NCBI RefSeq assembly: GCF_000026545.1
Contig: NC_011601.1
Length of the DNA stretch: 64,000 nucleotides
DNA from: Escherichia coli O127:H6 str. E2348/69
Lineage (GTDB): Bacteria > Pseudomonadota > Gammaproteobacteria > Enterobacterales > Enterobacteriaceae
Direction: 5' to 3' (one strand)
Shown here: positions 48,083 through 54,000 of the stretch, piece by piece
Layout of the letters: the number at the start of each line of letters is the position of its first letter
Numbering within the stretch: the first letter of the stretch is position 1
Made by a program: the position numbers

Positions 48083-51000
48083 AGAAGACCGTCGGTTTCC
48101 AGTGTAACCTGCTCCTGATTTGCTTTACGTAATGTGGATACAGTCCAGTCCTTGACCTCCAGAAATACCAGCCCGTTATCCGGGTCAATAATGACAAAAT
48201 CCGGATGTCGGTTTTTCCGTCCCACCGGGATATCGTACCAGACAAAGCAATCATCATTCAGAAAGCTCTCCAGTCGTGAAGCCACCCTCCTCTCCCCTGG
48301 CGTCATTCTCTCCTCAGTGGACGCTGATATATTTATCAGTTTCGCCATAACATACTCATGCTCCAGTAAAACCATAACCGTCGACATATTCCGTCTGAAG
48401 GGAATATGTCGAATACTTCATTAAAATACAAACATTTAGTAAACTTCACTACGCAAGTGCAATTATCCAGTCCCGTCTAATGATTAAAAACGATAACCAA
48501 CTCCAACAGTAAATCCATTGACCGAATGTTTTCCATATATATCTGCTTTAGTTCCCTCATACCCAACATTTACAGACATATTGCCCCACGGATTAATAAT
48601 AACACCAGCTGCATAAGCAAAATCAGTGGATTTTTTTGATACAGACTCACTTAAATATCCATCAGACTCATCAGCACCCACACTGTTTCTCCACTCATAA
48701 TCTCCCTTCGCTTTAGTATGAGATATCCCCACCAAACCATAAAAACTGATATAGTCATTCAGACGATAAGCTGGGCCTGCGAGAAATGAATAATATTTAA
48801 TATCAGCCTGATGTCTGTAAAAATCGTCAGCTTCATCGCGATGACTGTCCGCCCAATCACCTTTCATATACGAAAAACTCCCGACGACACTGACCGGAGA
48901 ATCCCACTCATATCGATATTGCAGATTCACTCCTTTAATATTCTTAAAGTCCTGTACCTTACTCTGAGCATAACCAGCCGATAGCGTATGATTATCAGCC
49001 AGTCTTGAACCACTCATAACAGATAATATCATTACTGAAATTATAACGAGTTTTTTTCATTTAACCCTCCTTCATTAATAAATGATTTCTGAAAATCAAA
49101 AAGGACCACACATCTCAAAAACATTATTTGAAATCATCATCAAAAAACTATAAATATATCACCTGACGATTTGAACACACTGACAAAAAACCAAGCATGG
49201 TAATAAACCGAACTCCCCACAAACTTCTGTTGCCTCAGATACTCCCCCCCCCTTTCCTCAGGCACAAATGTTGTTCCATAACGAACCAGCCCTGTTCCTT
49301 TAAACTCTGCATCAATGGCATAATGTATACTCACCAGACTGAGTTTGCTCCTGCATCATTATTTCGATACGTTAATGCATTGTTCATTGCATCCGGCATT
49401 CCCCATCGAATATTTACTTTGTTATATCAGGCAGCCCATAACCAGGTAAATTTTTAAGGCTTACTGACTGAATATTCAAAATGTGTTACATGTTATCAAA
49501 CCTTTAAAGAATAACCTGCTCTTCTTCATTGGCCGGATTTAGCTCAATCTTGTCAGCAAAACTAATATAAAGCCGTTCATAAAGAGAAGGATGTAGCTTC
49601 GTTATTTATCTTTTACATGTAACAGTGCCAGGGGATATTCCGCACATCTCTGTGGCTATCATCCCCACCACGTCTCCAGTGGCAGCACCTGCGGCACTGG
49701 CACGGGCGTTATTTCCCTGTACCACCGCCAGTGCAGCATTCACCACGGCATGGGCTGCCACATTTGCAGTCTTATTCACCACACCTGTAACCTGTCTCTT
49801 ATACACAAATCCCCACCCGGGGATTTGTGATGTCTGTCAGTCTGCTTTAGGGGGACTCTTTCCATCCGGTAGTTTCCTTCCTCCCCGGCAGCGATTTTTT
49901 GAACTTTTTCTTCACCCGTTGATCTTCTCTTATATTTCATTTTCTTCGGGTCTGTTATGGTACTTTCTGATTGTTATTCACTGGCTAACGAGCAGTCTGG
50001 ACATGCCCGTCTCGGTGATCCGCGTCGTACACGACGCCTTGTGTCACTGACCTCTTCTCTCGCTCAGCATGCAGGTCTTTCTATTGTGAAATCATCCCAC
50101 TTCACTGCTCAGGTTGAAGGTGCGTACCGCCTGATACGTAACCCGTCGGTGTCCCCGTAAGCCATTGCCGAAGCCGGATTTACTGCCACTGCAAGGGCAT
50201 GTGAGGCACATCCGCTGCTCCTCGCGCTGGAAGATACCACCACCATTAACTTCGGTCACAGTACGGCATTTGATGACCTGGGGAATACCACCACTAACCC
50301 GAAGACGCACGGGCTGCTGGCTCACTCTGTCCTGATGTACGCCCCCGACAGCGCCCTGCCAGTCGATCTTATCGAACAGCAGTGCTGGAGTCGTGCCACG
50401 GACACCTACGGTGTTAAGCACCAGCGAAAAGAACGTCCCTGTGAAGAAAAAGAAAGTTACCGCTGGCAGCAGGCTTCGGAGCGCATGGCCGAACGGCTGG
50501 GGGAGATACAGAAACAGGTAATCACTGTCTGTGACCGGGAAGCGGATATCTGGCATTACCTGCATTATAAAGTCAGCCGCGGGAAGCCACACGCTGAATG
50601 TGATGCAAAAAGGCGGGCGGGCAGCCCGCCAGGCCCGGATGCTCATCAGTTACAGCGAAGTCAGCATAAAAAATCCCGACAACAGCGGCCAGGCGCTCCC
50701 GCTCACGTATGTCTGTTGCCGGGAGCAGGCAGAGGACGGCGCCTGCTGGCATCTGCTGACGTCAGAAAAAGTGGCGAGTGCCGCCGATGCGCGACGTATC
50801 GTCAGCCATTACGAGCAACGCTGGCTGATAGAGGAATACCACAAAGCGTGGAAAAGTGGTGGTACATGTGTGGAATCGCTGCGAATGCAGACCCGGGATA
50901 ACCTTGAGCGCATGGTGGTTATCGCGGTGCGGGTGCTGGGCCTGCGGCAGGGAGGTATCAGTGAAGAAACACAAAATGACAGCTGTGAGAAAATACTGAC

Positions 51001-54000
51001 GCCGACAGAGTGGAAACTACTGTGGGTTAAGCTGGAAGGAAAGCAGCTTCCGGCGCAAACACCGACCCTGAAATGGGCCTGTTTGAAACTGGCTAAACTG
51101 GGGCGATGGCATGACAGCAAACGCACAAGCAGCCCCGGTTGGGTAGTTATGTGGGATGGCTGGTTCAGACATCAGGATATGGCTGAGGGTTACCTGGTGA
51201 TGAAGTCTCTTGATCAGGAGATCTGATCAAGAGACAGGTCAAAGATGGGGGACAACGTCTGGTGCTGTATAACAGCACAGGCCTCACACTCTTGACGCCC
51301 GTGGAATATATTAGAGAACAAAAATTTCAATATGTGGTGGACGCATACAGAGGATTGACAGCATTCCCATACTAATTGTTAAGATTCAAATTGAAGTATA
51401 TCTATCTGTCATTTTGCAAATGATATGCGGTAGCTTTACCTAACTATCATGAACATTTCGAAAAATCATCCACAAAGCCCCGAAGAATAAAGCACTATCG
51501 CCCGATAAAGACCTGTAAGCTCAGTGGCATGGATACTATTGAGCTCAGAATGGCGAGCTGTACCGTTATTTCATTACCATGCTCGACGAACACAGCAACT
51601 ACGCTCAGGCTCTGGCCGTACTGTCGCTTAAAAGTGATATCATCAGGCATTTCTTCTGCTGTGTAGCCCAGTTGTTCCTTGTTGGTATCAACCAGATCAT
51701 CACTGATGATGGGCAAAGAGTTCTCGGGAAAATTCGACAAAACGCTACAGGAAGCCACCGTCGGGTTCGTATGGACTTATCTCTATACGCCGAAAATAAA
51801 TGCCATAAGTGAGCATTTTAACCGAACACTGAGGGAACAATTTATTGAGTTTAATGAAGAATTGCTCTTTGAATAGCTGAATATGTTCAATCTGAAACTG
51901 GCTGAGTATCTGGTACTGTACAACAGTAAAATTCTTCATAAATCGTTTAAACTACAAAAATCAGTAGAATATATTATTTCCACTGTCAGGCGGAAAATTT
52001 ATAGAAAGGATACAAACATATGCCAATAATAAACAAATCGGCATCAAATTATGTTGAATATATTTCAAAAAACAATCCCCCTTATTTATCAAAAAAGAGA
52101 GATGCCAGTATAAATCTAAATGGAAAGGTTAGTGATTGCAATGGGGAAATCATATGGTGTCGACATATAGCATCATATTGGAGTGAGTTTTTTTGTAGTA
52201 ATTCAGGAAAGATAGACTACGAAACATTTTCATCCCCTCAATTATTAAGCAAAGCTATTGTAATTCAGGAAAACAAGGGGACAAATAATATTAAGGGTGA
52301 TGTGTATTTTGTTGAAAATGAATCTTGGGGAAGCGTTATATATAACCTTTTTCTTCAACTTGAGAAAGAGAATAAATCTCACACATCATTAGAAGTTCAT
52401 TCTCCCGGGCATGCAATGGCTCTGGGCATTAAAATAAAAAACGACAAGGAAAATAAGTTTGTTATTAATTTCTATGATCCCAATCAGACCGCGACGCATA
52501 AACGAGTATTTTTTTGCACTAATAACATTTGTGATATAATAAACCTGACAGCATATGATTTTCTTAGTGAGCAATGTCTGAAATGTTATGGGCTAAAAGA
52601 AGACACACTGTCACTTTTTGTGGATAAAACAAAATCGAATGACAACAATAATGTGTTTATAAAAAAATTACCTGATAATATTCTCCAAGGTGTTGTTATT
52701 AATTTTGCTATGGGAGCAGGACTAAGAGAGATAATAAAAAAGGTATATAACGATACTCGATTTACAGATCTTACAAAATCTCAGATGAAAATCTTGTGTG
52801 AATCAAAAAATGTTAATAATGTTCCTGGGTTGCTTTTAGCTCTACAAAATGGACATGATAATGTAATTGATGAATATGGTACTTTAATTAAAAAGTCAAA
52901 TCTTAATAAAGAAGAATTAATACATATATTATCTGCAAGAACTTTGGATGGAACCATACCTGGTTTATATCAGGCCCTTCAAAATGGACATGCTCAAGCT
53001 ATTAAGAGTTATGGTAACTTAGTTCTGGATACTATTGATAAAAATATAGATTTAGAGTATTTGCTTTCAGCATTTAAATATGAGGCGCATAGCTCTAATA
53101 AATATACTCCTGGATTATTTTCTGCATTTAAAAATGGTCATGCAGACGCAATAAAAGCATATTGTGACGTACTTGGCAATAGTAATTTGACAAGAGGTGA
53201 GATAATCAGGATGCTTGAGGCGAGAAATTATGATGGTGCACCAGGATTACTTCTTGCGTATCAAAATGGAGATATTAATACGATTCAGTCTTTTTTTGAC
53301 TCACTAATAATGTTAGATATATCAAAGGATTTTATCGAAGAGTTATTGACTGCAAAACATTATGATTTTACGGGGTTATCATTAGCGATCAGTCATAGAC
53401 ATGATCATGTTGTCAAATTATACGGAAAGTTATTTAAAAAACTTGATACCAGTCCATATAAAATGTCAATTATCCTAGCATTAGCAATTGATTGCGAGAG
53501 AAATAATGCAAACATAATTATTGATAGTGAGTACAAGTCAAATAAGGCAGTAAAGGAATATGTAGAAATTTTAAAAGAATTCAATATATGCCCAGAAAAG
53601 GTAGCAGAATACCTAAGCGAGTTCAGCGGAAAACATTTCCTCGATGTATATAATTATTATTCCAATTGAAAAAAAACATAAAGTATCTATCACGGCACTC
53701 TCAGTTGAGTATCACAGGCACATGTATTTTATCCCCCTGAGTCTACAGACAACCAATATTACTTAAATAAGTGATAATCTTAATACTGTTTTTTAGAACA
53801 GATGATTGATATTTTTGGGCCGGAGAAACGCAGACAGGCTTTGTTGAATAAATCGAGCTTTTGCTGAGTTTAAGGATCAGATCACTCATTTTCCTGCAAA
53901 AGCTCATTGGGCGAAACAATCTGACTCAGAGAACCCGGATTAAACGTCTGGCCCGCAGAACCATCTATTTCTCACGCACTGTAGTACGTAATAAAAAAGT

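Follow-up and report, generated by a model that had tools for sequence, protein, structure and literature searches.

A predicted non-functional relic of ISEc13, an IS50-subgroup insertion sequence, in a virulence island of Escherichia coli O127:H6 E2348/69

IS50, the insertion sequence of transposon Tn5, belongs to a subgroup of the IS4 family that is recognized by a size of 1350 to 1550 bp, ends of the form CW------Y---CA-A--W-, a YREK motif, and direct repeats of 8 to 9 bp (De Palmenaer et al. 2008, PMC2266710). We applied these criteria to an element at positions 49792 to 51237 of a 64,000-nucleotide stretch of DNA from Escherichia coli O127:H6 strain E2348/69 (NC_011601.1); the whole stretch is referred to here as the window. 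A preliminary description had called it IS50-like, with near-canonical ends of the IS50 type but a broken-up transposase. Neither of the two findings named there as refuting it was made: no continuous transposase frame exists, and the termini align to those of IS50. This interpretation is supported and can be refined: judging from its sequence, the element is almost certainly a non-functional relic of ISEc13 (IS4 family, IS50 subgroup), that is, a degraded ISEc13 and not a shortened IS50. The relic is already known, as an annotated and common insertion-sequence pseudogene. In its annotation of the E2348/69 chromosome NZ_CP059840.2, RefSeq describes positions 12166 to 13435 of the extracted locus (window 49957 to 51226) as "IS4 family transposase; frameshifted; internal stop."

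Identity of the element and its relation to IS50

A megablast search of plasmids and complete E. coli genomes identified the element as ISEc13; the NCBI name for its intact relatives is "IS4-like element ISEc13 family transposase." The reference for global alignment was an intact 1550-bp ISEc13 copy encoding the 457-aa transposase WP_000244358.1. In this alignment, 1404 positions matched and 42 did not, and there were exactly two gaps, one of 92 bp and one of 12 bp; no difference from intact ISEc13 was seen over the first 119 bases of the element or over its last 54. Copies of an insertion sequence are usually regarded as isoforms, by the ISfinder convention, when they share about 95% DNA identity or more. 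The element is 97.1% identical to ISEc13 over 1446 aligned bases and has the same two termini, and its gene order and orientation are those of the intact copies in ygfK and on plasmid pMAR2. Nothing counts against its identity as ISEc13. The bounds of 49792 and 51237 put forward in the preliminary description are exact; they enclose 1446 bp between inverted ends, 104 bp less than intact ISEc13. The ends are as follows.

49792..49810, + strand: left terminal inverted repeat of the IS50 outside-end type, CTGTCTCTTATACACAAAT
51219..51237, - strand: right terminal inverted repeat, CTGTCTCTTGATCAGATCT, with two GATC sites, overlapping the transposase stop codon

For comparison, the IS50 ends were taken from a real Tn5 record (pMAK2), in which IS50 was located with the Tn5 transposase protein. 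IS50 of pMAK2 is 1534 bp long and runs from outside end CTGACTCTTATACACAAGT to inside end CTGTCTCTTGATCAGATCT. The ends of the element had been described as near-canonical, and they are: the left end has two mismatches to the outside end over 19 positions (17/19 identical), and the right end shares all 19 bases of the inside end. With up to three mismatches allowed, the outside-end pattern had a single match in the 64-kb window (0.01 expected by chance), as did the inside-end pattern (0.00 expected by chance). Both termini, CTGTCTCTTATACACAAATC on the left and CTGTCTCTTGATCAGATCTC on the right, start with 5′-CT and fit every specified position of the subgroup consensus. Within the left end lies TTATACACA, the sequence of the DnaA box of IS50.

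Such ends, at 17/19 and 19/19, together with a length near 1534 bp, would also suit a degraded IS50, for example one left behind by Tn5. We rejected this reading after aligning the IS50 of the pMAK2 Tn5, since just the ends and short patches match. The relic and ISEc13 are about 53% identical to IS50 in global alignment, against the 97% identity of the relic to ISEc13, and BLASTN returned only three short patches of 23 to 40 bp, including one at the right end. The element thus lacks the near-identity to the 1534-bp sequence that marks IS50 proper. It had been said to be about 90 bp shorter than IS50, and the measured shortfall is indeed 88 bp; this agreement is a coincidence, the real shortfall being the 92 plus 12 bp (104 bp) missing relative to ISEc13. 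Alignment to IS50 and to IS4-family entries of ISfinder had been proposed for locating insertions and deletions; alignment to IS50 confirmed the ends, and the two gaps were placed against ISEc13.

The kinship with Tn5 is clear at the protein level. The ISEc13 transposase is 43% identical to the Tn5 transposase over 441 aligned residues, and a PDB search aligned its residues 6 to 453 with residues 9 to 469 of the Tn5 transposase (E = 6e-84). The intact protein scores 514 bits against the NCBIfam IS4 equivalog and contains the Pfam domains Tnp_DNA_bind and DDE_Tnp_1, with Dimer_Tnp_Tn5 below threshold. Its motifs LEDTT, CDREAD, and YxxRxxxExxxxxxK align with the Tn5 catalytic motifs, and we take them to correspond to D97, D188, and E326/YREK in the established Tn5 numbering. 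ISEc13 has in common with IS50 an outside-end-type left end with the TTATACACA box, an inside-end right end with two GATC sites lying over the stop codon, and one transposase gene, whose product has an N-terminal DNA-binding domain, a DDE/YREK core, and a Tn5-type C terminus. It differs from IS50 in its leader (165 bp with a terminal hairpin, versus 92 bp in IS50) and in having no Met aligned with Met56, the start of the Tn5 inhibitor protein. Both the relic (1446 bp) and intact ISEc13 (1550 bp) fall within the size range of the subgroup. The complete DDE/YREK motif set is present, spread in the relic over two frames downstream of a stop codon (YREK region, YEQRWLIEEYHKAWK). The relic does not have the 8- to 9-bp direct repeats of the subgroup. 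We conclude that ISEc13 works like IS50 and is a member of the IS50 subgroup, yet is a distinct element and no isoform of IS50. The natural ends of ISEc13, which are nearly those of IS50 (outside and inside), may interest those who work on Tn5 end recognition.

Two further features lie at the 5′ end of the element.

49792..49956, + strand: 5′ leader upstream of the transposase start codon
49804..49829, no strand assigned: perfect 11-bp stem with a 4-nt loop, CACAAATCCCC-ACCC-GGGGATTTGTG, overlapping the inner half of the left terminal repeat

The 165-base leader has one difference from that of intact ISEc13, a C-to-T change at element position 120. The 11-bp stem is the dominant helix in the leader fold (leader z-score, -3.2) and is also found in intact ISEc13, whereas IS50 has no such stem-loop. 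By analogy with the leader structures of IS10 and IS50, our guess is that the stem-loop might block read-through transcription from outside or translation. Scans of the relic leader with promoter and terminator consensus sequences gave no match.

Over its first 16 bases (window 49792 to 49807), the ISEc13 left end reads CTGTCTCTTATACACA. This stretch equals the beginning of the engineered "mosaic end" of Tn5, a sequence that is also the Nextera adapter CTGTCTCTTATACACATCT. The natural ISEc13 left end has the inside-end T at position 4 and outside-end bases at positions 10 to 16. Adapter trimmers that use the mosaic-end sequence would clip true reads at ISEc13 left ends.

The interrupted transposase gene

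The open reading frame (ORF) list contains no full-length transposase frame within the element, in keeping with a fragmented gene. The proposal that the transposase is split over several frames is correct in that the reading frame is broken, but only two frames and one in-frame stop are involved. The parts of the gene are as follows.

49957..50160, + strand: N-terminal transposase fragment of 67 codons, from the ORF list (Pfam Tnp_DNA_bind, E = 1.7e-15)
50161..50576, + strand: transposase frame beyond the stop, ISEc13 codons 69 to 206, from alignment to ISEc13
50576..50577, no strand assigned: junction of a 92-bp deletion (ISEc13 nt 786 to 877; codons 207 to 238 lost)
50579..51226, + strand: C-terminal fragment in a shifted frame, ISEc13 codons 239 to 457 plus TGA (Pfam DDE_Tnp_1, E = 7.2e-5)
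50918..50919, no strand assigned: junction of a 12-bp in-frame deletion (ISEc13 nt 1220 to 1231 lost)

Three lesions account for this arrangement. The first is a CAA-to-TAA change that creates a stop at ISEc13 codon 68 (50158 to 50160); the frame beyond it contains the first two catalytic motifs, LEDTT (50227 to 50241) and CDREAD (50530 to 50547). The second, the 92-bp deletion, shifts the reading frame, so that the third catalytic motif (YREK, 50810 to 50854, YEQRWLIEEYHKAWK) is read in another frame; the corresponding entry in the ORF list is a 231-codon ORF (50531 to 51226) whose frame differs from that of the N-terminal ORF. The third, the 12-bp deletion, sits between two TTATC direct repeats and converts ERMVVIKAFIAVR to ERMVVIAVR. 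A loss between such repeats would fit replication slippage. An autonomous insertion sequence has an uninterrupted transposase frame, and this element has instead the codon-68 stop and the 92-bp and 12-bp deletions. The relic is predicted to be incapable of making transposase and of moving on its own.

Breaks in a reading frame may in general reflect sequencing or assembly errors in an intact element, and beyond this general possibility nothing supports such an explanation here. Several observations rule it out. Two independent assemblies of E2348/69 have the identical sequence here, the stop and the deletions recur in the O157:H7 assembly, the deletion junction is present in about 596 records (see below), and a 92-bp deletion is untypical of such errors.

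The same relic in other strains, and intact ISEc13 copies

The relic is also present in O157:H7, at a site that we take to be the island equivalent to OI-122/SpLE3. The TAA stop, the two deletions, the two flanking junctions, and the gene order all recur there, with the relic lying between a pagC-like gene and espL2. The O157:H7 copy is 99.4 to 99.5% identical to the E2348/69 relic, from which it differs at 8 positions (7 substitutions and an extra 1-bp deletion, the latter at the equivalent of window 50730). We estimated the wider distribution of the relic with an 80-bp probe over the junction of the 92-bp deletion, which matched about 596 complete E. coli records at an identity of at least 99%. 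This class was used as the estimate, the count at 80% coverage or more being confounded by half-matches of intact copies that had been joined. Among the matches listed, those that covered the junction in a single piece were from strains labelled O157:H7, O55:H7, and O103. The flanks of the relic matched about 601 records at an identity of at least 99% in the set of 5,426 complete E. coli genomes searched. Since lesions and junctions are common to the copies of enteropathogenic E. coli (EPEC) and enterohemorrhagic E. coli (EHEC), we infer that the element was already dead before the island module spread. Shared by EPEC O127:H6 and EHEC O157:H7, along with the listed O55:H7 and O103 matches, these lesions and junctions would serve as a clean marker of a single ancestor of the island module.

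The extra deletion in O157:H7 has a consequence for annotation. With 92 plus 1, or 93, bp lost, the frame is restored and a 297-codon chimeric ORF results, which RefSeq calls an intact "IS4 family transposase" (WP_001303655.1). This ORF (equivalent to window 50335 to 51226) consists of ISEc13 residues 127 to 207, about 50 out-of-frame residues, and roughly residues 290 to 457. The O157:H7 copy of the 67-codon ORF is annotated as "IS4/Tn5 family transposase DNA-binding protein." Annotation is therefore inconsistent: one genome lists the relic as a pseudogene, and others list two or three "intact" proteins for it. All but one of the 7 substitutions and the 1-bp deletion of the O157:H7 copy fall inside 63 bp (50699 to 50761), and this clustering suggests a small conversion patch.

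In contrast to the relic, intact ISEc13 copies are present elsewhere in E2348/69. There are 30 ISEc13-matching places on the chromosome, near the highest per-genome count (32) among the 5,426 genomes, and two more on plasmid pMAR2. A full-length copy in ygfK (chromosome 935673 to 937222), which splits this putative selenate reductase gene, has an intact transposase gene and is 100% identical to a pMAR2 copy; the intact copies at both places encode WP_000244358.1. Identical copies in ygfK and pMAR2, and the split ygfK gene, point to a recent expansion of ISEc13 in this lineage. The ISEc13 family is thus probably active or recently active in E2348/69, and the relic appears to be an old passenger.

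Flanking sequences, proposed history, and mobility

The two flanks of the relic are unrelated to each other.

49606..49791, - strand: left flank, a cdiA-like gene fragment cut off by the element (90% identity to cdiA of strain PCP07014)
51238..52029, + strand: right flank, unrelated sequence that includes the remnant of an IS481-family transposase (51460 to 52029), which abuts espL2

The left-flank fragment is annotated as "hypothetical protein" in E2348/69 and corresponds to the C-terminal region of a cdiA-like contact-dependent inhibition gene. The intact cdiA of strain PCP07014 reads on past the junction point, and its continuation has no similarity to the right flank of the relic. The element is absent from the corresponding place in strain MN06021, where the pagC-like gene, the TssE pseudogene, and the cdiA-like fragment lead into pseudogenes of a ShlB/FhaC-family (cdiB-type) transporter. 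At the relic, the left (ACCTGTAAC) and right (GTCAAAGAT) flanks show no target-site duplication. The intact ISEc13 copy in ygfK is flanked by a 9-bp duplication (GCATGGTGG), and two plasmid copies have duplications that were read as 8 bp. Because intact ISEc13 copies have repeats of 8 to 9 bp, we interpret the missing duplication as a secondary loss at the relic copy. The ISEc13 duplications (9 bp at one site and 8 bp at two) fit the 8 to 9 bp of the subgroup and not the strict 9 bp of IS50.

These observations are consistent with the following history; we infer both its sequence of steps and how the deletions and the rearrangement arose. An ISEc13 copy would have landed in a cdiA-like gene that was part of a mobile virulence island. 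Its transposase gene would then have decayed through the codon-68 nonsense change, the frameshifting 92-bp deletion, and the slippage-type 12-bp deletion between TTATC repeats. The DNA to the right of the relic may have been replaced via deletion or recombination, a rearrangement that would have removed the target-site duplication. The relic would finally have been inherited passively with the island by the EPEC and EHEC lineages.

Some points make this account less certain. A search of 5,426 complete E. coli genomes with the joined flanks (250 bp each) turned up neither an empty site nor an intermediate form, and no record had the two flanks side by side, so that the proposed order of insertion, decay, and rearrangement is tentative. 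The changes relative to ISEc13 are also unevenly distributed. Besides the CAA-to-TAA change, there are 16 synonymous and 25 non-synonymous changes, with 4 synonymous and 17 non-synonymous in codons 1 to 318 and 12 and 8, respectively, in codons 327 to 444. From this comparison, the former pattern looks like decay, and the latter resembles what would be seen between variants that had diverged while functional. A different ISEc13 variant may have been the ancestor of the relic or have recombined with it, and part of the 2.9% divergence may reflect such descent and not decay after inactivation. Finally, the relic retains an intact leader and two intact 19-bp ends, on which a transposase supplied by another copy could act.

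This last point raises the possibility that the relic, although non-autonomous, is mobile, being moved by the transposase of an intact copy either alone or together with a second ISEc13, the two forming a composite transposon around neighbouring effector genes. A source of transposase is at hand, given the 30 chromosomal places and the pMAR2 copies, including the 100% identical full-length copy with an intact gene in ygfK. However, the relic has no target-site duplication, and its deletion junction occurs once per genome in 16 of the 17 genomes that had a single uninterrupted match, among the matches listed. The flanks are the same in O157:H7, where checked, with no trace of copies at new sites. 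A non-autonomous mobile derivative resembling a miniature inverted-repeat transposable element would be expected to occur in its deleted form at several sites, each with its own duplication; this pattern was not found. The IS50 transposase acts mainly on the copy that encodes it, and by analogy Tn5-type transposases in general may do the same. We consider a mobile relic extremely improbable.

A second alternative concerns the 67-residue N-terminal peptide, which, if used by the host, would be expressed from the intact leader, bind ISEc13 ends, and damp transposition of active copies. The ORF (49957 to 50160) retains a complete Tnp_DNA_bind domain (E = 1.7e-15), the leader in front of it is one base off that of the intact element, and E2348/69 and O157:H7 have the ORF in the same form. 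The supposed effect resembles that of the Tn5 inhibitor protein, which instead lacks the N terminus. Against a selected function, the 67 codons contain, relative to ISEc13, 6 non-synonymous changes (W9L and F14S among them) versus 1 synonymous change, a ratio that indicates neutral decay and not purifying selection. Conservation of the ORF across strains is explained by the recent, shared ancestry of the island, whose flanks are also about 100% identical. A role for the peptide is next to impossible in our assessment.

Since ISEc13 and IS50 ends are near-identical despite a transposase identity of 43%, the two elements might also mobilize each other. Taken jointly, the claims that the relic is a substrate for the transposase of another copy, that the 67-residue peptide modulates ISEc13, or that ISEc13 and IS50 cross-mobilize are very improbable. 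If the first were true, the relic, alone or paired with another ISEc13, could move or rearrange the adjacent effector genes espL2-nleB-nleE. A passively inherited ISEc13 relic is the reading that we retain.

The relic is one of many insertion-sequence remnants in a mosaic virulence island with espL2, nleB, nleE, and efa1, and is of little importance alone. A total of 25,446 bases around it are identical to NZ_CP059840.2. The locus starts with a tRNA-Phe gene and an integrase, followed by IS66-family debris, a nuclease-related domain pseudogene (named NERD domain in the O157 record), the pagC-like Ail/Lom gene, and the TssE pseudogene. Next come a short "hypothetical protein," the relic, the IS481-type remnant, and espL2, and after these an IS1 remnant, nleB and nleE, an IS630 pseudogene, and efa1/lifA. 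We take this tRNA-Phe-linked island, with its pagC-like gene, espL2, nleB, nleE, and efa1/lifA, to be the counterpart of O157 OI-122.

Some smaller features of the surroundings were noted. The TssE (type VI baseplate) pseudogene (49140 to 49605) adjoins the cdiA fragment, so that remnants of two unrelated secretion systems are fused. Directly to the right of the element, an open frame on the + strand (51238 to 51375) ends in ...YNSTGLTLLTPVEYIREQKFQYVVDAYRGLTAFPY*; NCBIfam searches with the two short flank peptides gave no family match. The IS481-type remnant (51460 to 52029) overlaps the espL2 start codon at 52020, so that espL2 is directly preceded by insertion-sequence debris.

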